A DNA stretch of 64,000 nucleotides from the NCBI GenBank assembly GCA_020443345.1, contig JAGRIH010000021.1, forward strand, positions 45,018 through 109,017, given 5' to 3'. A program made the position numbers and the translations under genes. Every line of letters starts with the position of its first letter. The first letter of the stretch is position 1. Shown here one piece after another: positions 40,948 to 50,736 of the stretch. Source of the stretch: Halioglobus sp. GTDB taxonomy: Bacteria > Pseudomonadota > Gammaproteobacteria > Pseudomonadales > Halieaceae. The notes below the pieces were generated by a model that saw nothing but the letters and a program-made list of their open reading frames with translations, was not told the DNA's origin and did not search any database.

Positions 40948-41748
40948 TCAGAACGCCGCATAGTCCGCGCGCTGCGCCTGTTTGGCCCGCATGCGCCGCA
41001 TCGCGGTGTCGTAGGCCGCCCGCGCCAGAAGCCTGCTCTCCACCGGCTCCAGTGCGGGCATCTGGCGCGCCCAGGCTTGAAAAAAACGCCAGCGGTCGCT
41101 GCGCGATAGCTGGTGCGCGGGCAGCATGTTCAGCTGCACCAGGTTTTTCAGCAGCAGCTTGCCGGGCACCTCCCGGTGGCGCGAGTTACTCTCGTTGTCG
41201 ATAAAGGTGAACCGGTAGCGCTCGCCCTGCCGGTCCGCCAGGATATTGCCGGGACGCAGGTCACCGTGGACAAAGCCGCTGCCGTGCAGCCGTCCCACCT
41301 GGGTGCCCAGCGCGCGCAGGAATGTGCGGCGTCGGTCGGCGGCACCGGCGTCGGCGAAGCGGCGCAGCCACTGTGGTACCGGGTCGCCGGGTACGAGGCG
41401 GGTGAACAGGTACTCGGCGCCGCCCGGGGTGCGGCCCCACAGCACGTTGACCGGAGCCGGGAAACCGCAGTGCAGCAGGGCGTCGCTGTTGTCGCGGGCG
41501 CGCCTGCCGCGGCCCCCGCGCAGCAGCGCCTTCAGCCTCTCCGGCCAGCCGCGTGGCAGAAATGCCTTGTAGTACAGCGCCCGCTGTGGATTGCAGGCGA
41601 CCACGGCAAAGCGCGAGCTGTCGACATAGTGCCAGCCCGCGACTTCCTGCCGCGCACTCAGCGGCGGGGCCAGCAGCACCAGCTCCGCTTCCGGCTCACT
41701 GCTCACTGGTGCGCGCCGCGACCCGGCGCAGCGCAGTTGCGGCTGCAT
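40948..41748 (-). CDS. LPS kinase (Kdo/WaaP/InaA family) paralog, inverted orientation
   Basis: GRLHGSGFVHGDLRPGNILA catalytic loop, FTFIDNE. Confidence 0.75.
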   Translation of the reverse strand: MQPQLRCAGSRRAPVSSEPEAELVLLAPPLSARQEVAGWHYVDSSRFAVVACNPQRALYYKAFLPRGWPERLKALLRGGRGRRARDNSDALLHCGFPAPVNVLWGRTPGGAEYLFTRLVPGDPVPQWLRRFADAGAADRRRTFLRALGTQVGRLHGSGFVHGDLRPGNILADRQGERYRFTFIDNESNSRHREVPGKLLLKNLVQLNMLPAHQLSRSDRWRFFQAWARQMPALEPVESRLLARAAYDTAMRRMRAKQAQRADYAAF

Positions 41749-41768
41749 AAGACCGGGCGGGTCTGGTG

Positions 41769-41777
41769 TGAGATAAT
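41769..41777 (+). promoter_or_regulatory. extended -10 promoter element (TGaGATAAT)
   Basis: Lies in the 62-bp divergent gap between the two kinase paralogs. Conserved in the diverged second copy at 49780-49788. Confidence 0.35.
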
Positions 41778-41810
41778 GACATCGAAGGCAGTTTACTCAT
41801 GTGATCCGGG

Positions 41811-42629
41811 TTGTGGCGGGATTGTGCAGTCGTGACAGCGTCTATTGACAACATCAACACCGCGGCTTCGGAAGGCGCGCCATTGACCTGTCTCGGCGCG
41901 GCCGATGCCGCCACCGAACAGACATTTCGAGAAAAATGCACGGTTCTAAAGACAGGCACCGGCAGTTACGCGGGCCTGTTGCACATCGGTGGTGGCGGTG
42001 AAACGCTGTTCGTAAAATGCTACCTGGCCAAGCATAGCATTGCCCGACTCGCGGGCAAACTGGCGCTGGGCCGCGGCTACACCGCGCGCGCCGCCATGCG
42101 CGCGCTGGCCGGGCGGCTGCGCGTGCCCGCAGAGCGCGGCCTGGTCAGGAACCGTCGATCCGGCAATATCTACCTGTTCAGCGAACACCTGGCCGGCACT
42201 GATCTTGCGCAGTTGTATCGCGGGGGGGAACTGGCGGAACCGGTCCTGCGGCCGCTGCTGTGCCTGGCCGGGGAGTCGCTGGCGCGCATGCACGAGGCGG
42301 GCTGGGTGCACGGCGACTTCAAGTGGGGCAACCTACTGGTCGAGCAGGTACAACCGCCGCGGCTGGCACTGCTTGATTTCGATGGCGCCGGGCGCAGCCG
42401 GCGGGCCGTGCGCCGCGGGCGGGATGTGGCGCGCTTTATCGTCAATGCCGAGGACTACCGCGTGCCCGAGGTGCTGGCGCGGGTGTTTCTGGACGCCTAC
42501 GCAGCGGCGCGCCCGATGAGCGCCGCGCAGGTGCTGTCGCAGGCGGCGCCGGCCCTGCGCAAGCTGCGGGCCCGGCACGATCGGAAATACGGCTTGAGAG
42601 AGGTGGAACTGTTTCATGGGGAGTTCTGA
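41811..42629 (+). CDS. LPS kinase (Kdo/WaaP/InaA family) paralog
   Basis: MHEAGWVHGDFKWGNLLV catalytic loop, LLDFDGA. The start is ambiguous (TTG 41811 or GTG 41832). Confidence 0.75.
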   Translation: MWRDCAVVTASIDNINTAASEGAPLTCLGAADAATEQTFREKCTVLKTGTGSYAGLLHIGGGGETLFVKCYLAKHSIARLAGKLALGRGYTARAAMRALAGRLRVPAERGLVRNRRSGNIYLFSEHLAGTDLAQLYRGGELAEPVLRPLLCLAGESLARMHEAGWVHGDFKWGNLLVEQVQPPRLALLDFDGAGRSRRAVRRGRDVARFIVNAEDYRVPEVLARVFLDAYAAARPMSAAQVLSQAAPALRKLRARHDRKYGLREVELFHGEF

Positions 42630-42666
42630 GCCGCTAAAGCTGTACTGGTCATCCAGCAAACCGAAT
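42491..42666 (+). repeat. direct repeat, left copy (DR-L)
   Basis: 176 bp, identical to 49829-50004 apart from 3 mismatches by manual alignment. Covers the kinase 3' end and the first 17 codons of the pyruvyl transferase. Confidence 0.95.
42616..42666 (+). pseudogene. truncated 5' fragment of the polysaccharide pyruvyl transferase gene
   Basis: MGSSEPLKLYWSSSKPN is identical to the start of 49954..50736. The reading frame then diverges into unrelated sequence (ORF 42616..42837). Confidence 0.85.
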
Positions 42667-42873
42667 CTTGCCGTTCCACTCGTTGCGGGTACTGCGTACT
42701 GCGGCCTGAGGTGCTTCTGGCGGTGTAAGAAGGTCTGCTCGATGTCGTGTACGGCGCGCACATTGCTGCCAGCCCTCAGAGGACGGGCGGGACACACCAT
42801 ACTGTTCATCGATCGCGAGGGCAGGCTTACAGGATAATTTGCTTCCCCATCACGGGAGCTGCAGGTTAGAAAG

Positions 42874-43959
42874 TTAGAAATAAACGTGGGCCTGGAGGAA
42901 GTATTCCTCACCATCCGGGTACAGCGGGTCATCGCTGTCCCGCAGCCGCACCACGGCGCGCAACTGGGTGTGAGACCAGGGAAAATATTCCCAGACGAAG
43001 CTCGCGCGTTTTCTATCGCGATCCTCACCACTGAAGCTCTGGTGTTCAAGAGAAAGCTTAAGATTTTGCCCCTTTACTACCAACCAGTTTGCTTCAAGCA
43101 GAGCGATATCCATTTCGGTATCTGATGCGAGCCTGTCGTCGTCCTCGATCTGGTCATACTCCAGCAACCAGGTCACCGGACCGGTATTGAGTCCTGCGAA
43201 GATGCCGATCAGCTTCCGGTCCACCAGGTCCGTATCGTTATAGCCCGCGCTCACGCCGAGTTGCCCCCAGCCGTCAAGCCAATTGCCGCGAAACATCACC
43301 CACTTGCCATCGTCCACCTCACCGCCCCCGCCCGAGCCGTTGGTAACGGACAACTGCGCCTGGATATGGTGTGTATCGTAACCCAGTTCCACGCCATTAT
43401 CCGGCGTCGAGAAAGTGACGCCGCTGGCCTGTCGCACGAATGCCGTGTCATCCTGTAACCGCCAACCGAAGGGAAGGAAAATCTTTCCCCCTTTCAGATA
43501 CCAGTCCTTCCTCTGGATCTTGACCCAACTCTCCCGATTGATGGAGCCGCCGGGCGCGACTTGCTGGTCAACATAGAGGGCCAGGTACTGGTTGAGCTGC
43601 AACCGGCCATAGAGGGTTACCGCATCGGTGGTGAATTCCAGGTTGCTGTCGACATTGTCCACGTCAAACTGCCGGGCGCTGTAGCGCGCGTTACCGCCAA
43701 GGCGCAGGCCATCGAATACTGCGAAATCCGGCTCCACGGCTTTCTCGGTCAAGGGCCTTACAGAGAGAACGGATGCGCCATAGGCACTGCCGAAAGCCGT
43801 GCGCATGCCGCCGCCTGTGGGGTTGACATGGCATACGTTGCACTCATTGCCGGTCCGGACTGACAGGTAGGGTTCCGCCCGAGAGAGCCCCGCATACAGC
43901 GTCAACAGTAGGACGGCCACTGGCGCTGTGTGCCTGACAAAAGGCAACGTCGGCATCAA
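42874..43959 (-). CDS. predicted outer-membrane beta-barrel protein with N-terminal CxxCH heme motif (fused cytochrome-porin architecture)
   Basis: Signal peptide (...LLLTLYAGLSRAEP), CNVCH 12 residues after the predicted cleavage site (encoded at 43828-43842), alternating amphipathic strands and a C-terminal ...QAHVYF. Confidence 0.6.
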   Translation of the reverse strand: MMPTLPFVRHTAPVAVLLLTLYAGLSRAEPYLSVRTGNECNVCHVNPTGGGMRTAFGSAYGASVLSVRPLTEKAVEPDFAVFDGLRLGGNARYSARQFDVDNVDSNLEFTTDAVTLYGRLQLNQYLALYVDQQVAPGGSINRESWVKIQRKDWYLKGGKIFLPFGWRLQDDTAFVRQASGVTFSTPDNGVELGYDTHHIQAQLSVTNGSGGGGEVDDGKWVMFRGNWLDGWGQLGVSAGYNDTDLVDRKLIGIFAGLNTGPVTWLLEYDQIEDDDRLASDTEMDIALLEANWLVVKGQNLKLSLEHQSFSGEDRDRKRASFVWEYFPWSHTQLRAVVRLRDSDDPLYPDGEEYFLQAHVYF

Positions 43960-45890
43960 TTGTTCTCCGCCCCGGCATCAATCCACTCCCGCACGGACTG
44001 TATCTGGCTGTTGCTCAGCGGTGCACCGCCCAGGGGCATGCGCGAACCGACGGGAGCCGTACCCTCCAGCTTTTGGACGATCAAACTGTTGTTGGCATCT
44101 CCCGGTAACACCCGGGTGAGCGCCGGGTTTTGCGAGCTGGGGACGTTGACCAGATTATCGAAGGCCTGGCCCTGGGACAGGTTCATGCCCGCCGCAGGAG
44201 CGGCTCCGGTGTGGCATCCGGACACGGCGCACGAGTTGTTGAATATCTGGGTCTGAATTTCCGATAGGGTCGTTGTTTCAGGCTCCGGCTCCGGCTCCGG
44301 TTCCGGTTCGGGGGGCGTGGCAAGTGTAAAGGTGACTATCGCGTCTCCACCTCCGGTGCCGTCCCGGTCACCATCCAGCACGCGCCCCTGCACGTCGGTA
44401 AGGGGAGTGCCACCAGTACCCAAGACCGTGAGCTGATAGGTGTCATCCATCGCAGCGACGCCGGTAAAATCCAGCTCGACGGAATTGTCCTCCACCAGCA
44501 CGTTGACGTGACTTATCTCCATCTCATTGCCGTCACTGAAGGAACCGTCACCGCCGCTGGCCAGCAACTGGAATTGTCCGGCCTCCGGCTCGAGAGGCGC
44601 GGCATTGAAGTTAAGCTCAATGGAGGTGGGAAAGCTGTTCACGACGGCACCGTTTGACGGTACCGTGGAGTTGACAAGAAACCGCCCGGAACCCATTTGC
44701 GAGTTGTCGGGCACTATCTGACCCCGCATCGCGCCCTGTGGAAACGCGGGTGTATAGACCTCTGCGTACAATCCCTGATTGCGCAGCGCGCGGGACAGGC
44801 CTTCGGTCAGCGCCGTATCCACGGCGAACCAGTGACTCAAGTTCTGCACGTCCTGCTCTAACGCAATGGCTATGGGGCCGCGCTGGCCGAGCGGCGCCTG
44901 GCGAATGGCGGCACCGGTTGCATCATCGGCCCCGCTGTTGTTCAGGTGAAAGCTGGCGCTGGACTCGCTAACCTGCAGCGTCAATGCCAGCAGTCCGCTG
45001 ACCCCGCTCGTCGATGGCGGTACCACGTCGCCGGGGCTGAGATTGGTGAACATTATCTCCACGTTCTCGCCGGGTAACTGGCCGCGCACTTCACCACCGG
45101 GGTGTTCGGGCGAGTGTACGTTGACGTAGTAATAACCGTTATCCAGGTCCGCCAGATCCTCCGCATCCAACACCTGATGCGCTGCAAACCAGTGGTCCGC
45201 GTTGTCGACATCCTGTGTGAGTTGGATTACCACAGGTCCGTTGACCCCTGCCAGCGCGCGATGGATATGGCTGGCGGTAGCGTCTTGCAGCCCGACCGTG
45301 GTAACGTGGATAGTCAGCTCGGTGGCCTCGGGGCTCAGGGTAATCGCGGCGCGGCCCATCGCAGTGGTATCGACCACCGGCACTTCCTGGCTGCCGGATA
45401 GCTGCAGAAATCGAACGCGTACATCCCCGATAACGATCTGACCGCGCAGCGCGCCGTCCGGCAGTCCCTCGGTGACAACCAGCAAATACAGGCCGCCGGC
45501 CTCCAAAGCCGCCAATTGCGTTTCATCGAGTACAGTGTCCTCGGGCAGCATCCACTGAGTATCGTTGCTGGCGTCCAGTTCGATTTCTACCGGGCCTGAC
45601 TCCCCGGCCAGACCCCGGCGCAGCTGTACCGCCGTGGCGGTCAGCCCCTGCAGATCGACGGTTCCCTGCAGCGTATCGGTGTCGAGATCCAGTTCAAACT
45701 CGGCGGAGGCGCTGGCACCGCTGGAACTCCCCGCCACCACCTGCATGGCGTCAAGCTGTACCTCGATGGTCATGGTATTGGCCGGCTGGGTGTTTGAGTT
45801 GTTATTGTTACCACCATTATTGCAACCGGAGACCAGGGCGATCGTCGCTAAAATCAGTGCCGCTACTAATTGAATTGCATATCGAATCAT
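43956..45890 (-). CDS. lipoprotein with three CHRD domains, an Ig-like domain, a (PE)n linker and a C-terminal cytochrome-c-like (PSCyt-type) domain
   Basis: Lipobox LVSGC. The canonical CHRD repeat is LSGSQEVPVV...ASHIHRALAGVNGPVVIQL...YYVNVHSPEHPGGEVRGQL, flanked by two degenerate repeats ending ...ALRGQIV and ...AMRGQIV. PPEPEPEPEPEPE linker. C-terminal IFNNSCAVSGCHTG...MPLGGAPLSNSQIQSVREWIDAGA. Its stop overlaps the start of the downstream barrel gene by 4 nt. Confidence 0.7.
   Translation of the reverse strand: MIRYAIQLVAALILATIALVSGCNNGGNNNNSNTQPANTMTIEVQLDAMQVVAGSSSGASASAEFELDLDTDTLQGTVDLQGLTATAVQLRRGLAGESGPVEIELDASNDTQWMLPEDTVLDETQLAALEAGGLYLLVVTEGLPDGALRGQIVIGDVRVRFLQLSGSQEVPVVDTTAMGRAAITLSPEATELTIHVTTVGLQDATASHIHRALAGVNGPVVIQLTQDVDNADHWFAAHQVLDAEDLADLDNGYYYVNVHSPEHPGGEVRGQLPGENVEIMFTNLSPGDVVPPSTSGVSGLLALTLQVSESSASFHLNNSGADDATGAAIRQAPLGQRGPIAIALEQDVQNLSHWFAVDTALTEGLSRALRNQGLYAEVYTPAFPQGAMRGQIVPDNSQMGSGRFLVNSTVPSNGAVVNSFPTSIELNFNAAPLEPEAGQFQLLASGGDGSFSDGNEMEISHVNVLVEDNSVELDFTGVAAMDDTYQLTVLGTGGTPLTDVQGRVLDGDRDGTGGGDAIVTFTLATPPEPEPEPEPEPETTTLSEIQTQIFNNSCAVSGCHTGAAPAAGMNLSQGQAFDNLVNVPSSQNPALTRVLPGDANNSLIVQKLEGTAPVGSRMPLGGAPLSNSQIQSVREWIDAGAENN
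44281..44310. repeat. hexanucleotide tandem repeat (GGCTCC/GGTTCC, 5 units) encoding the PE linker
   Basis: ggctcc ggctcc ggctcc ggttcc ggttcg, read directly from the sequence. Confidence 0.9.
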
Positions 45891-46126
45891 GGTCGGGATC
45901 CTCGGCAGGTTTAACTGTAAGTGCCCGCGGCGCCGACCGAAGGTTCGATTAAAAAAAAGTTTCGGGGCTTTGAACCCCCGATCCGGTAAGGAGTACTCAC
46001 AGGATAGGGAATCCGAGCTTTAGGGTGACAACAAAACAGTTGTTACCGGCGATTTGAACTTTTTCCCGATTGGCGGATACTGTGGATACTAGTGTTGGAA
46101 GTGGGTAGCTGTCGGCTATACGTGCG

Positions 46127-46726
46127 ATGTCCGAACTGAACAGCCAGGCGGCTGCCGAGGACCGCCACCATAGGGAACTGCTGGCACGCACCGCCAGGGG
46201 TTCTGTCGAGGCTTTTAACGAACTCTACACCCTGCTCTATACGCCCCTGGTGCGTTTCCTCTACCGCTTTACTCAGTCCAGCGCACTCGCCGAAGAAATT
46301 CTGGACGACACCCTGATGGTGGTCTGGCAAAAGGCCGGCACTTTTCGCGGCGACTCCCGCGCTTTGACCTGGGTGCTGGGCATTGCCGGCCGCAGAGCCT
46401 TGAAATCGGTGCGACAGGAGCGCCATTGTGCCAGTCCGCGAAACTGTCTGTTTCCCGGATCGACCGCTGCGAACGAGTTGTCGCAGTTGGCGACGCGAGA
46501 AGCGCTGGAATGGGCATTGCAACAGCTCAATACAGAACAACGCCTGGCGATTGAAATGGCATACTTTCACGGTTTGAATTGCGAGGAGATTGCATCAGTA
46601 CTGGGCTGTCCGCTCAATACGGCTAAAACACGACTGCACTATGCCCGCCGTCGATTGCGCAAGATATTCGGCAGTGCCGGGGAACCGCTCGACTTCGCTG
46701 ACCTCGACGAGGCAATGGCGCCATGA
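46127..46726 (+). CDS. ECF (group 4) RNA polymerase sigma factor
   Basis: Region 2 (FNELYTLLYTPLVRFLYRFT...AEEILDDTLMVVW) and region 4 HTH (LNTEQRLAIEMAYFHGLNCEEIASVLGCPLNTAKTRLHYARRRL). Confidence 0.9.
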   Translation: MSELNSQAAAEDRHHRELLARTARGSVEAFNELYTLLYTPLVRFLYRFTQSSALAEEILDDTLMVVWQKAGTFRGDSRALTWVLGIAGRRALKSVRQERHCASPRNCLFPGSTAANELSQLATREALEWALQQLNTEQRLAIEMAYFHGLNCEEIASVLGCPLNTAKTRLHYARRRLRKIFGSAGEPLDFADLDEAMAP

Positions 46727-47412
46727 CCAGCAAGTTGAACAGAATCAGTCACCGGCAGGTGGTGGACGCGCTACCGGCATTTATCCGCGGCAAACTCAGC
46801 AGCGAGTTGCAGCGTCAAATACAGGCACACATTGTCAATTGCACCGCCTGCGCCAGCCTGCATCGTCAGGAGTTAAACTTGAGTGGCCTGATCTGTGAGC
46901 CGATGGCGGGCGAAGAAATACTGCTTACCTCGCAGCGGCGCGAGACGAACAGGATGCGCCTGATGCAGCGCATCAAGCAAAATCCGTCGCACCCGGGCGC
47001 AGCGCAGGACAACCAGTGCGTATCGAGCATGCGGTCTAGATTTCCCCGGGTAGTAAGCGTTGCCGCCAGCATGGCAGCAGTGGTTCTGGGCGGCATGCTC
47101 TGGGTGCAATACAGTTATTCCCCAGCGCCGGAAAGCGGGGCAACCTACCTGACCAGATCCTCAATCACCGCACCGCAAACCGCTCCCACCGACGATACCT
47201 ACCGGGTAGTCTTTCAACCGGAGGAAACCCCAGACAGTATTCGTCACTTACTGAGCGTACTGGAGGCGGAGGTGATCAATGGCCCCTCGGCGACCGGGGT
47301 GTACACCCTGGCGTTTAGCCAACCGGCATTGAGCAATGAACAGCGACTGGCGCAGTTGCGCCGGGAGCCCGCCATTTTGTTGGCAGAAAGAAGTGTACAT
47401 CGGGATCGGTAG
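46723..47412 (+). CDS. anti-sigma factor (zf-HC2, single-pass membrane)
   Basis: ATGA overlap with the sigma gene, HIVNCTAC (H-x3-C-x2-C), TM helix VVSVAASMAAVVLGGMLWV and an extracytoplasmic tail of about 85 aa. Confidence 0.8.
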   Translation: MTSKLNRISHRQVVDALPAFIRGKLSSELQRQIQAHIVNCTACASLHRQELNLSGLICEPMAGEEILLTSQRRETNRMRLMQRIKQNPSHPGAAQDNQCVSSMRSRFPRVVSVAASMAAVVLGGMLWVQYSYSPAPESGATYLTRSSITAPQTAPTDDTYRVVFQPEETPDSIRHLLSVLEAEVINGPSATGVYTLAFSQPALSNEQRLAQLRREPAILLAERSVHRDR

Positions 47413-47437
47413 GCAATCTCCGCATGCATTTTGGCGA

Positions 47438-48694
47438 ATGTTGGCAGTCCTTGTGCCAGTTCTGTGCGCATGTTTGGCCAGTGCCTGCCAGCACCACGCA
47501 CCACTATCCGCCTCCGACCGGGCCTCCCAGTCACCCAGGCTGTTACTCACTTTCACCCAGAGTGCCGACAAAACCTCCGGCTTAGTGAACAGTTTCAGCG
47601 GGAACTACTTTCGCAGCTACTGGGCTGCTCCGTTGATAACTCAGCACCGGATTATTCAAATTGAGAGGGACTACCCGCTCGTAGAGCAGGAGGGCTGGGA
47701 AATCGAAGCACTGGGAGTTTATTGTGTACTGTTCACCCTGCAACCGGGGGCGGATGCGGCCACCCAGTTGCAGCGACTGCGTCAGGACGAGCGGGTGGAG
47801 AGCGCGCAGTTACTCCAACTATACCAAACCCGCGCCGCCACCGCCTACAACGACCCCTACTTCAGCATCCAGTACGGCGAGGCGCGGGCCTATATCCAGC
47901 AACTTCACCAGTGGTCGACGGGAAAGGGGGTGGATGTGGCGATTATCGATACCGGCGTGGACATTGGCCACCCGGATCTGCAAAGCCAGATCTTCAATAC
48001 CCAGGTGTTCGTTGCCGGCGATTCGGACGACTTCCGCCACGACATTCACGGCACCGCGATGGCCGGAATTATCGCGGCCTCCGCCAACAATGGCACCGGC
48101 ATCGTTGGCCTGGCTCCGGACGCCCGTCTCTGGGTATTAAAAGCCTGCCACCAGCTCCACAGCCGTTCCAGTGTAGCACAGTGCGACAGTTTCACTCTGG
48201 CCAAGGCGCTGAACTACGCTATCGTTCGCAATGTAGACGTACTCAATCTCAGCCTGTCCGGCCCCTATGACCCACTCATCGACAGGTTGATTCAGCGGGC
48301 GCTGAATAAAGATCAGATCGTGGTTGCAGCAGATCCCGGGCGGGGAGCAGACCGATATCCGGCTTTGATAGATGGCGTGCTCGCCGCCAGAGAGGCTCCG
48401 CCGGGACAGGGCATGACCAGCCGCATGGCCGAGCCCATGGTGGTGGTCACCCCCCAGACAGAATTGCTGAGCACGGGGCCGGGCGGCGGCTATGACTTTT
48501 TTACAGGGTCGTCCAATGCGGCGGCTCTGGTCAGTGGGTTGGCGGCCGTGCTTCTCCAAAATAGCAGGGAATGGGCGCCACAGGTGCGGGTGAACTGGAT
48601 CCAGCAGGCGCTGAGGATGGAGCAGCACTGGGTGTCGTTGAACCAGCCGGGGGTTGGAGATCTCGCGGGCTACAAAGACCTCCGGCGACCGTAA
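47438..48694 (+). CDS. S8-family (subtilisin-like) serine peptidase, secreted or lipoprotein-like
   Basis: Catalytic triad contexts VAIIDTGVDIGHPDL (D), HGTAMAGIIAA (H) and GSSNAAALVSG (S). Hydrophobic Cys-containing leader MLAVLVPVLCACLASAC. Start set at ATG 47438. Confidence 0.85.
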   Translation: MLAVLVPVLCACLASACQHHAPLSASDRASQSPRLLLTFTQSADKTSGLVNSFSGNYFRSYWAAPLITQHRIIQIERDYPLVEQEGWEIEALGVYCVLFTLQPGADAATQLQRLRQDERVESAQLLQLYQTRAATAYNDPYFSIQYGEARAYIQQLHQWSTGKGVDVAIIDTGVDIGHPDLQSQIFNTQVFVAGDSDDFRHDIHGTAMAGIIAASANNGTGIVGLAPDARLWVLKACHQLHSRSSVAQCDSFTLAKALNYAIVRNVDVLNLSLSGPYDPLIDRLIQRALNKDQIVVAADPGRGADRYPALIDGVLAAREAPPGQGMTSRMAEPMVVVTPQTELLSTGPGGGYDFFTGSSNAAALVSGLAAVLLQNSREWAPQVRVNWIQQALRMEQHWVSLNQPGVGDLAGYKDLRRP

Positions 48695-48702
48695 TCACTA
48701 CC

Positions 48703-49419
48703 ATGCACCCCGGCCATGCGGCGGCATTATCGATACTGGTGATCACGAAACTGGCCGGCCCGCAGCAAGTGACTGCCGGCGAGCTCGTCTCCACCGGTAG
48801 TATCGGTCTCGCCAGTGGCCAGGTGTACCGGGGCATCGCCCTGGCCAGGGAGACTCTGGTCCCCAACATCAACGTCGCGCTGGAACACAGTTCGGGTGTG
48901 TATGCCCGAACCTGGCTGACCCGGGTGCAACTGGCGGGCCTGGCTTATCCGTCCGACGAAAGCACCTGGCAAACGCTACTGGACGTAGGCTATCTCTGGC
49001 AGTTGCAATCCCACTGGACGATTTCAGCCGCCCACCACTGGTATCACTACAGCGAAAACACCCGTGGGAGTGATCGCGACTATCGCGAATGGTCGGCCAG
49101 CCTGGACTATGGCGCCTACCTGACCCTCAACTACGCCTATACAAATGATTTGTGGGGGCGCGACCTGCGTCAGGACGTAACCACGCTCAGCGGCCGCTGG
49201 CCATTCACTCAGCGCCTTGTTGGCGAGGCCGCCGTCGGCTGGGTCAGCCAGCACGGTCAGCGTGGAGACAGCTACAGTTTCCTGCGCCTCAATGCCGGTT
49301 GTGTGATTCGCGACTGGAGTTTCCAGTTGCAGTTTCATACCACCCACAATGTCGACGGGTACTACCGCAAGAGCCGCATCGGCAATCAGTGGATCGCCCA
49401 GATGGATTGGCACTGGTAG
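48703..49419 (+). CDS. predicted outer-membrane beta-barrel (Gcw_chp/TIGR02001-like)
   Basis: SGQVYRGIALA..PNINVALEHSSGVYARTW resembles the SDYvfRGisq...G.Y.g.W start of that family. Alternating strands and a terminal ...AQMDWHW. The signal peptide is weak. Confidence 0.5.
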   Translation: MHPGHAAALSILVITKLAGPQQVTAGELVSTGSIGLASGQVYRGIALARETLVPNINVALEHSSGVYARTWLTRVQLAGLAYPSDESTWQTLLDVGYLWQLQSHWTISAAHHWYHYSENTRGSDRDYREWSASLDYGAYLTLNYAYTNDLWGRDLRQDVTTLSGRWPFTQRLVGEAAVGWVSQHGQRGDSYSFLRLNAGCVIRDWSFQLQFHTTHNVDGYYRKSRIGNQWIAQMDWHW

Positions 49420-49703: not shown

Positions 49704-49967
49704 CCGGCTCACTGCTCATTGGCAGCTGCATCGAATCGGTGTCACTGTTGCGGTTTCATAAGACCGGGCATGTCGGCTGTGAGATAATGCTATTAAAGAC
49801 ATTTTACCTATATGGTCCAACTTATGGTGGATGCCTACGCAGCGGCGCGCTCGATGAGCGCCGCGCAGGTGCTGTCGCAGGCGGCGCCGGCCCTGCGCAA
49901 GCTGCGGGCCCGGCACGATCGGAAATACGGCCTGAGAGAGGTGGAACTGTTTCATGGGGAGTTCTGA
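49704..49967 (+). pseudogene. remnant of the LPS kinase locus: diverged promoter region plus the 3' end of the kinase gene
   Basis: 49704-49807 is a diverged copy of 41701-41796, including the first codons of the minus-strand kinase and the TGaGATAAT element. 49829-49967 is the last 46 codons of the + kinase. The body of the gene is missing. Confidence 0.8.
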
Positions 49968-50004
49968 GCCGCTAAAGCTGTACTGGTCATCCAGCAAACC
50001 GAAT
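49829..50004 (+). repeat. direct repeat, right copy (DR-R)
   Basis: Matches 42491-42666 with 3 mismatches. Confidence 0.95.
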
Positions 50005-50736
50005 GTCGGCGACTGGCTCTCGCCGCGGATTGTGCAGGCGCACACCAGCCGCGAGGTGGTACACGCGTCTGCCAGGCGCTGCGAATTCATGGCGATCGGC
50101 AGCATTCTGCACAAGGCGAAAAATTTGCCCTTCTCGCCGCGGCTGAGCGTGTGGGGCAGCGGCTACATGCACGATGGCCCCCCGGTAAAACTGAAACACC
50201 GCGTACACGCGGTGCGCGGCCGCCTGACAGCGGCACGCCTCAAGAACCACTGCGATCTGCCCTGCGGTGACCCCGGCCTGCTGGCGGCGCGGGTTTTTCC
50301 CCACTGCGCCGCTGCGCCGGTGCCGGGTCGGGTGGGCGTGGTGCCCCACTATACCGATCGCGACGAGCCGGCCGTGCGGCGTTTCGTCGAGCGCGTACCG
50401 GGTGCGCTCGCCATTGACATATTCGATGATGTGGAGGGGTTCCTGTGCAAACTCACGACCTGTTCTTTCGTGTTGTCCTCCAGTCTGCACGGCCTCATTC
50501 TGGCCGACGCCTTCAATATTCCCAACCAGTGGATCCGCTTGTCCGACCGGGTCGAGGGGCGGGATTTCAAGTTTTATGATTACTACAGCGTATTTGACCT
50601 GGCGCCGCCGCAATTCGCCGACCTGGAGCAGGTGGGCCGGGCAGAAATCGAGAGGCTGCAGCGCGACTACCGGCGCCCGGGCCTGGAAGCGGTCTGTGAT
50701 GCCCTGGCCGCGGCGTTTCCCGCGGAGTATCGGTAA
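49954..50736 (+). CDS. polysaccharide pyruvyl transferase family protein
   Basis: N-terminal ...SSSKPNVGDWLSPRIV (NxGDxLS motif) and C-terminal SSSLHGLILADAFNIP. Confidence 0.75.
   Translation: MGSSEPLKLYWSSSKPNVGDWLSPRIVQAHTSREVVHASARRCEFMAIGSILHKAKNLPFSPRLSVWGSGYMHDGPPVKLKHRVHAVRGRLTAARLKNHCDLPCGDPGLLAARVFPHCAAAPVPGRVGVVPHYTDRDEPAVRRFVERVPGALAIDIFDDVEGFLCKLTTCSFVLSSSLHGLILADAFNIPNQWIRLSDRVEGRDFKFYDYYSVFDLAPPQFADLEQVGRAEIERLQRDYRRPGLEAVCDALAAAFPAEYR

Follow-up and report, generated by a model that had tools for sequence, protein, structure and literature searches.

The first cleavage of the anti-sigma factor and the specificity for the signal are known for only a handful of extracytoplasmic function (ECF) sigma factor systems. 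Here we describe an ECF sigma factor operon from Halioglobus sp. (GenBank assembly GCA_020443345.1, contig JAGRIH010000021.1, positions 45,018 to 109,017), in which the genes for the sigma factor and its anti-sigma factor are followed by genes for a subtilase of family S8 and an outer-membrane barrel. All evidence is computational, and the term window refers to the whole stretch of 64 kb that was analysed (128 kb counting both strands). With the sigma-E/RseA/DegS/RseP system of E. coli and AlgU/MucA/AlgW of Pseudomonas the operon would share autoregulation and a periplasmic serine protease, which we propose for the first cut close to the membrane. In contrast to DegS, this protease is encoded in the operon itself and is an S8 subtilase, not an HtrA-type protease (S1C) with a PDZ sensor, and the periplasmic domain of the anti-sigma factor is a predicted homologue of a prodomain and not of the RseA/RseB type. 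A specific extracytoplasmic site-1 cut, as proposed here, that is followed by site-2 cleavage is also part of sigma-W/RsiW/PrsW and sigma-V/RsiV/signal peptidase in Bacillus and of the Prc/CtpA-dependent cell-surface signalling in Pseudomonas. The proteases of those systems, however, belong to families M82, S26 and S41, and none of their anti-sigma factors mimics a prodomain.

Subtilase genes have been noticed before in the neighbourhood of an ECF sigma factor. The genomic context of ECF54 in Actinobacteria contains genes for a subtilase, a carboxypeptidase and CHAT proteins, and proteolytic control was proposed (PMC8999054); this group was described without an anti-sigma factor, and the protease was suggested to act on the sigma factor itself (PMC8999054). 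Unlike ECF54, the module presented here has a canonical zf-HC2 anti-sigma factor, and it occurs in Proteobacteria, Acidobacteriota and Myxococcota. The searchable literature yielded no S8 site-1 protease and no link between an anti-sigma factor and a subtilase prodomain, and ECF54 was the sole subtilase-linked ECF group found. The module is widespread and apparently undescribed, and its bare gene neighbourhood may already be part of the ECF Hub group descriptions.

As judged from sequence comparisons and structure models, the periplasmic domain of the anti-sigma factor is very probably homologous to the prodomains of subtilases. On the same grounds we lean towards the view that the S8 subtilase acts directly on the anti-sigma factor to activate the sigma factor, as a dedicated site-1 protease or at least as a direct partner. 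The operon consists of the following genes:

46127-46726, plus strand: ECF sigma factor of 199 aa (Sigma70_r2 and Sigma70_r4_2 matches)
46723-47412, plus strand: single-pass zf-HC2 anti-sigma factor of 229 aa (zf-HC2 match, transmembrane segment)
47438-48694, plus strand: S8 pro-subtilase of 418 aa (Peptidase_S8 match)
48703-49419, plus strand: TorF/Gcw_chp-like outer-membrane barrel of 238 aa, last gene of the operon (family scans)

An earlier note, made from the sequence by eye, had described these four packed genes, and the list of open reading frames (ORFs) and the family scans agree with it at all positions. The ATGA overlap of the sigma and anti-sigma genes and the gaps of 25 nt to the S8 gene and 8 nt to the barrel gene were confirmed, as was the AT-richer character of the 236-bp gap that separates the operon from a divergent one (45891-46126; GC about 0.50 versus about 0.60 in the flanks). 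Products of 199, 229, 418 and 238 aa are also called by independent metagenome gene callers on contigs with an identical anti-sigma factor. The sigma factor matches Sigma70_r2 (E=5.9e-10), Sigma70_r4_2 (E=2.2e-13) and TIGR02937 (68.6 bits, cut-off 42.9), and with about 200 aa and only the regions sigma-2 and sigma-4 it qualifies as an ECF (group 4) sigma factor. Among the NCBIfam equivalogs none was reached at cut-off, and the nearest solved structures match at only about 1e-14.

The anti-sigma factor matches zf-HC2 with 31.3 bits (cut-off 22.2). Of its zinc motif (H10, H36-x3-C40-x2-C43), the residues H36, C40 and C43 are invariant among the relatives and H10 is invariant or nearly so. A hydrophobic stretch read from the sequence as the transmembrane segment (about residues 108-128) follows, as expected for a class I anti-sigma factor of the zf-HC2 or zinc-binding anti-sigma (ZAS) type. 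The extracytoplasmic tail, put at about 85 aa in the earlier note, has about 100 aa (residues 129-229), and the folded domain takes up about 66 aa of it. Three features are central to what follows:

47197-47394, plus strand: subtilase-prodomain-like domain of the anti-sigma factor, residues 159-224 (AlphaFold 2, Foldseek, hhalign, and Pfam in relatives)
47146-47160, plus strand: membrane-near motif Y142-L-T-R-S146 of the anti-sigma factor (family [YF]-x-T-L-[STA]), proposed S8 cleavage site (motif comparison)
47822-47836, plus strand: pro/mature junction motif Y129-Q-T-R-A133 of the S8 subtilase, presumed autoprocessing site

In the AlphaFold 2 model of residues 131-229 of the anti-sigma factor the first 24 residues are disordered and are followed by an E-H-E-E-H-E arrangement, with a predicted local distance difference test (pLDDT) of 83-92 per 10-residue block. 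A Foldseek search with this domain against the Protein Data Bank (PDB) returned the propeptides of subtilisin, Tk-subtilisin and PC1/3 as 13 of the top 50 matches, and these had the lowest root mean square deviation (2.1-3.1 A). Alignment of profiles by hhalign, with 213 anti-sigma domains on one side and 205 S8 prodomains on the other, gave a probability of 88.6% (P=2.7e-6, 66 columns); a reversed control reached 4.3%, and smaller alignments gave 62%. Pfam PF22148 (Fervidolysin_NPro-like) is matched at E<=0.01 by 53 of 115 family representatives and zf-HC2 by 106 of the 115. The best PF22148 match (P0230, 8.8e-12, 45.7 bits versus a cut-off of 21) is an anti-sigma factor with two tandem copies of the domain, and the domain from the window belongs to the family at E=5e-26 with a local hidden Markov model (HMM). 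A PDB sequence search with the domain profile or the whole anti-sigma factor found nothing meaningful, and pairwise BLASTP of the anti-sigma factor against the S8 was merely suggestive (E=0.39). In its model the domain has the beta-alpha-beta-beta-alpha-beta fold of the subtilisin propeptide (MEROPS I9; PF22148), and about half of the representatives match by sequence; unlike this propeptide, it is located C-terminally on an anti-sigma factor that is bound to the membrane, in trans to the protease, and the motif precedes the domain.

A profile search was needed to see the extent of this family, since a first single-sequence search found 3 homologues of the anti-sigma factor and an alignment search 22. 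The exhaustive profile search returned 2,479 clusters at 50% identity with the anti-sigma domain (E<=0.001), which is a lower bound. Among the best 150 clusters almost all proteins have 205-250 aa and carry the domain C-terminally. The prodomain-like domain is present in tandem in P0145 (1093 aa, 6 copies), P0159 (367 aa, 3 copies) and P0230 (263 aa, 2 copies), and the gene for the last of these variants adjoins one for an S8 of 569 aa.

The protease gene was characterised by the same means. Its product matches Peptidase_S8 with 99 bits (E=3.6e-28), and D171, H204, S359 and the oxyanion residue N270 are invariant in 51 S8 sequences, with the triad in the order Asp-His-Ser that is found in the S8 family. 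Because the catalytic residues are invariant in 51 relatives, we regard the S8 as an active enzyme. The AlphaFold 2 model (mean pLDDT 86) shows a beta-alpha-beta-beta-alpha-beta unit at residues 34-130, a linker of low confidence at 135-143 and then the catalytic domain. The best PDB matches of the model are pro-subtilisins that have not undergone autoprocessing, with pro-subtilisin E on top (E=3e-21, about 370 columns), which points to a classical zymogen. Every S8 relative has its own prodomain, and that of the window protein matches PF22148 weakly. The window S8 starts with a lipoprotein-like signal up to Cys17; a lipobox is present in about 60-70% of the relatives, and none of them has Asp at position +2. 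A lipid anchor of the window S8 would lie on the prodomain, so that maturation would release the catalytic domain. The lipoprotein status of the S8 showed no association with the presence of a barrel gene (Fisher P=0.44). A mycosin of the type VII secretion system was the best NCBIfam match and was rejected (143.3 bits versus a cut-off of 278.75, without a genomic context of this secretion system). Two further pairs of residues are invariant: C237 and C249 in the catalytic domain, which may form a disulfide, and W87 and C96 in the prodomain.

The second feature shared by the two proteins is a short motif. In the anti-sigma factor it lies between the transmembrane segment and the domain, at a median distance of 12 residues from the membrane segment (interquartile range 10-14). 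In the S8 family the motif [FY]-x-[TVA]-[LQRYM]-[ASG] directly follows the last prodomain strand and is itself followed by a linker of variable length and YNDPY; in the model of the window protein residues 128-130 form a confident strand, and the confidence collapses from about 131 on. Subtilisin prefers an aromatic residue at P4 (S4 pocket) and a large one at P1 (S1 pocket). A matrix built from the S8 junctions picks the membrane-near motif as the best 5-mer in 74 of 85 anti-sigma factors, and its median score there is 9.7 bits versus 4.4 bits on 662 control ORFs, 4% of which get as high. Cognate motifs of anti-sigma factor and S8 also resemble each other more than permuted pairs do (P<1e-4 with all pairs, P=1e-4 with 59 representatives, P=0.004 with 40). 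For example, the two window proteins share an Arg at position four of the motif, and in four loci of the Duganella group (L068, L074, L077, L084) both proteins have Ala at position three.

The genetic linkage on which the earlier note had built its model is conserved. The S8 has many relatives of about 430 aa. A locus scan in which each species was represented by one genome gave 80 further loci, and an S8 relative is encoded in at least 492 stretches; the loci were anchored on the S8 gene and scored with HMMs built in this analysis. The order sigma, anti-sigma, S8 is collinear in 75 of the 77 loci with enough upstream DNA. The two exceptions are L038, where the arrangement is divergent, and L040, which has a separate anti-sigma copy upstream together with an S8 fragment. 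On seven gene-called contigs the three genes are adjacent and on the same strand in all cases, and in most gene-called loci the anti-sigma and S8 genes overlap at stop and start or are less than 30 nt apart. In 52 of 70 loci a TorF-like barrel gene is found at a distance of at most 3.5 kb (39 upstream on the same strand, 10 downstream on the same strand, 3 downstream on the opposite strand). Among the hosts of the module are members of the Gamma-, Beta- and Alphaproteobacteria as well as Acidobacteriota and Myxococcota; Dyella, Luteibacter, Duganella and Mangrovimicrobium are carriers that can be cultured.

Four look-ups that started from divergent anti-sigma factors found an S8 gene in two cases (one with a barrel gene) and a gene for a caspase-type Peptidase_C14 in the other two. 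In this sister arrangement, an anti-sigma factor with the same type of C-terminal domain is followed by Peptidase_C14 (L093, 2138-3823; L094, 303-1861), and this branch suggests a broader principle by which each anti-sigma factor would bring its own protease. As an anecdotal observation on the two C14-linked relatives, the motif is not recognisable in P0136 and reads F-R-T-S-S in P0139. A gene for a C14/CHAT protein is also located divergently to the module in L004 (4371-5597).

Starting from the computed synteny, domain homology, motif identity and promoter motif with its positions (see below), we infer binding, cleavage, the direction of control and an inducing signal as follows. In the resting state the sigma factor would be kept at the inner membrane by the zinc-finger anti-sigma factor, the periplasmic part of which would mimic two features of the S8, the fold of its prodomain and the motif at its pro/mature junction. 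Upon maturation the S8 would lose its own prodomain and could then dock on the prodomain-like domain of the anti-sigma factor. It would make the site-1 cut at the membrane-near motif and leave a stub of about 12-16 residues, which a general site-2 protease and cytoplasmic proteases would clear, and the sigma factor would be freed. This would then transcribe its own operon (from 45969-45998) and the divergent operon (from 45949-45919). In the most specific version of this model the anti-sigma factor would be a decoy zymogen that presents the prodomain and the autoprocessing site of its dedicated protease, and sigma factor activity would report the maturation of this protease; we offer this version tentatively, as possible rather than probable. 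The C-terminal tail of the anti-sigma factor was considered as a product-like inhibitor of the active site and set aside, with a tail length of 2 to 11 residues.

Several observations weigh against a direct action of the S8 on the anti-sigma factor or against parts of the evidence for it. The Foldseek matches have weak E-values (0.002-0.1), and many proteins share the ferredoxin-like fold. The window domain alone has no significant match in Pfam. The same anti-sigma domain is paired with C14 peptidases in at least two loci and is not exclusive to S8. The junction motif of the S8 probably represents the P side of the autoprocessing site, as judged from the model and from analogy, and does not fix the exact scissile bond. 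The covariation of the motifs weakens under strict de-replication (P=0.09 at 28 representatives). The motif stands ahead of the domain in the anti-sigma factor and behind it in the S8, which bears on the geometry of docking and cleavage. Finally, the S8 gene is co-transcribed with the sigma and anti-sigma genes, and an output of the regulon would look identical.

The earlier note had named both roles for the S8, site-1 protease of the anti-sigma tail or regulon output, and the prodomain-like domain together with the junction-like motif close to the membrane favours the first. The same domain can be read in the opposite direction. Prodomains are generally known as tight inhibitors of their cognate subtilases, the domain homology is the best-supported fact of this analysis, and the S8 gene lies within the operon controlled by the sigma factor. 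The anti-sigma domain could hence inhibit or tether the S8 in trans, so that the protease stays inactive at the inner membrane, or report its level; the S8 would then mainly be an output for the processing or degradation of envelope proteins, and the sigma factor would be freed by a different signal. We judge this reverse control unlikely. It leaves unexplained why a junction-like motif is conserved in a disordered linker near the membrane, and every S8 relative already has a prodomain of its own.

The model of direct S8 action includes two promoters, which were predicted in the gap between the divergent operons together with a weaker match:

45969-45998, plus strand: predicted autoregulatory promoter of ECF type that faces the sigma operon, TTTGAACCC-N12-GGAGTACTC (18.6 bits)
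45919-45949, minus strand: predicted promoter of ECF type that faces the CHRD operon, ATCGAACCT-N13-CGGGCACTT (16.6 bits)
46053-46082, plus strand: second, weaker promoter-like match, TTTGAACTT ... GGATAC (10.7 bits at family spacing, 16.1 bits at an unusual spacing)

A shared ECF motif had not been visible by eye to the earlier reader. Comparative motif discovery, by expectation-maximisation on 78 regions upstream of sigma genes, found one that faces both operons: aTTGAACCt-N12-cGGGtACt, with an ECF-like layout and the short form TTGAACC-N14-GGGTAC. In 2.2 Mb of loci there are 45 matches of at least 19 bits (0.7 expected from shuffles) and 101 of at least 15 bits versus about 20 in shuffles; 44 of the latter 101 have a sigma gene downstream. 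The promoter facing the sigma operon is the top match in the window. The one facing the CHRD operon, which was absent from the training set of the matrix, is the second-best in the 128 kb of window sequence and ends 29 nt ahead of the ATG of the CHRD gene at 45890. The next window match at family spacing after this divergent pair reaches only 12.5 bits. In the nearest relative, locus L095 (59% identity of the anti-sigma factor), a CHRD-like lipoprotein gene is also divergent, and each of the two promoters keeps its -35 and -10 blocks while the spacers and the remaining leader have diverged. We consider the predicted promoter assignments at both operons likely on the basis of these comparisons. 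Transcription would then be expected to start near 46005 on the plus strand and near 45912 on the minus strand.

The two TTTGAAC motifs that had been pointed out by eye are at the positions given (45969-45975 and 46053-46059); the first is included in the promoter of the sigma operon. Since the window contains 7 copies on both strands versus 3.1 expected, the evidence from this heptamer by itself is weak. The GGATACT-GT-GGATACT repeat exists as well, at 46075-46090, one base to the right of where it had been placed. The weaker promoter-like match spans the second TTTGAAC together with the first copy of GGATACT. Neither the second TTTGAAC nor the repeat is conserved in L095, and with the poor score at family spacing both were downgraded as key regulatory elements. 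A scan of the gap for sigma-70 promoters found none, and a riboswitch or attenuator in the gap was dismissed (no Rfam match; folding of the 128-nt leader is not better than that of shuffled sequences, z=-0.28). The gap also contains a terminator-like GC hairpin (45962-45981, minus strand) followed by a T-run (45951-45958), which overlaps the -35 region of the plus-strand promoter and lies just upstream of the -35 region of the minus-strand promoter; alternatively, this may be an A/T tract (UP-like element) shared by the divergent promoters. A 9-bp inverted repeat in the leader of the sigma gene (46024-46047, GGTGACAAC-N6-GTTGTTACC) is not conserved in L095 and could serve as an operator.

The divergent operon comprises two genes:

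43956-45890, minus strand: lipoprotein, first gene of the divergent operon (CHRD, E=1.7e-69)
42874-43959, minus strand: CxxCH barrel ('heme barrel'), encoded second in the divergent operon (weak Porin_4 match)

The lipoprotein combines three CHRD domains with a Big_5/CopC-like domain and a CxxCH region at its C-terminus, and the barrel has a CxxCH motif at the N-terminus; the two might form a porin-cytochrome-like unit. In at least 12 other loci, 8 of them with a promoter match, homologues of the CHRD/Big_5 lipoprotein and of the heme-motif barrel are encoded next to the module. This recurrence, the divergent promoter and its conservation in L095 support the suggestion of the earlier note that the pair is the likely regulon, and a local regulon of the sigma factor is the best reading of the CHRD operon from these sequence data. 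A Big_5/CopC-like lipoprotein (with or without CHRD) and a barrel with a weak porin match also form an operon pair in L008 (9139-11140), L053 (1158-3103) and L091 (892-3226).

Beyond the CHRD operon, the predicted targets comprise other secreted or periplasmic proteins, namely TlpA-like redoxins, FG-GAP proteins and beta-propellers with cytochrome c motifs, besides a plastocyanin-GSDH protein and a PgaA-like barrel. Because the predicted targets differ by locus, the outputs appear to vary between lineages while the core of sigma factor, anti-sigma factor and S8 is constant. In the Duganella group the predicted targets are TlpA-like periplasmic redoxins (L084, 4773-5270; L085, 3944-4432; L074, 2495-5344). 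In L091 (6722-8407) genes for a rhomboid protease and a redoxin flank the module.

These targets bear on a second alternative, in which a housekeeping protease similar to DegS, Prc or CtpA would make the site-1 cut. The S8 and the barrel would then be mere conserved members of the regulon, with the S8 for example maturing the secreted CHRD lipoprotein, and the likeness of the anti-sigma domain to prodomains would be a leftover. In the characterised Gram-negative ECF systems of the literature all site-1 proteases are unlinked, and the predicted targets are indeed secreted or periplasmic; yet they differ by lineage when the S8 is constant, and neither the recovery of the anti-sigma motif in 74 of 85 proteins by the S8-junction matrix nor the covariation of the cognate pairs fits a protease encoded elsewhere. 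We rate this explanation as quite improbable. A ZAS redox or metal switch, by which cytoplasmic oxidation or loss of the metal would free the sigma factor with no role for periplasmic proteolysis, agrees with the conservation of the zinc ligands (H10 and H36-x3-C40-x2-C43) and with several predicted targets that are periplasmic redox or copper proteins, but it is highly improbable, as most zf-HC2 anti-sigma factors are generally not redox sensors and the conserved periplasmic domain, the motif and the linked protease would be unaccounted for.

The barrel encoded by the last gene of the sigma operon scores marginally with Pfam Gcw_chp (25.9 bits, cut-off 24) and stays below the cut-off of NCBIfam TorF (TIGR02001, 38.1 bits versus 47.15). 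In the loci with a barrel gene upstream, these genes are without a sigma-type promoter (best score at most 12.7 bits); their sigma-dependent expression was therefore rejected, and a constitutive partner fits better than an output. The TorF-like barrel is probably a frequent, though not universal, partner on the sensing side instead of the output side.

The six genes of the two operons are enclosed by a direct repeat:

42490-42673, no strand assigned: left copy of a 184-nt direct repeat (3' end of a kinase gene and first 17 codons of a pyruvyl-transferase-like gene)
49828-50011, no strand assigned: right copy of the 184-nt direct repeat, with 97% identity to the left one (leads into an intact pyruvyl-transferase-like gene)

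The repeats bracket exactly these six genes as a cassette of 7.3 kb. They represent the junction of genes for a Kdo/WaaP-like kinase and a pyruvyl-transferase-like protein, with the kinase gene intact on the left and the transferase gene intact on the right. The flanking repeats thus suggest that the pair of divergent operons forms one unit, either by acquisition or by its boundaries, and judged by sequence the cassette looks like an insertion into a lipopolysaccharide or polysaccharide locus. A second direct repeat of 84 nt with 75% identity is located upstream of the kinase gene (41736-41819) and at 49747-49830, where it abuts the 184-nt repeat.

If the S8 acts on the anti-sigma factor as proposed, it would be the first S8 subtilase to serve as a site-1 protease and would extend regulated intramembrane proteolysis by a new protease family. 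Cleavage sites in such anti-sigma factors would be predictable from the junction of the partner protease itself, and the modules would provide compact, orthogonal sigma/anti-sigma/protease parts for synthetic biology. The recognition logic, a prodomain-like docking surface combined with a copy of the junction, is directly testable, with the protease, the substrate and a candidate site named. The predicted regulon would also connect the CHRD proteins and the heme-motif barrels, which are poorly understood, with a defined regulator.

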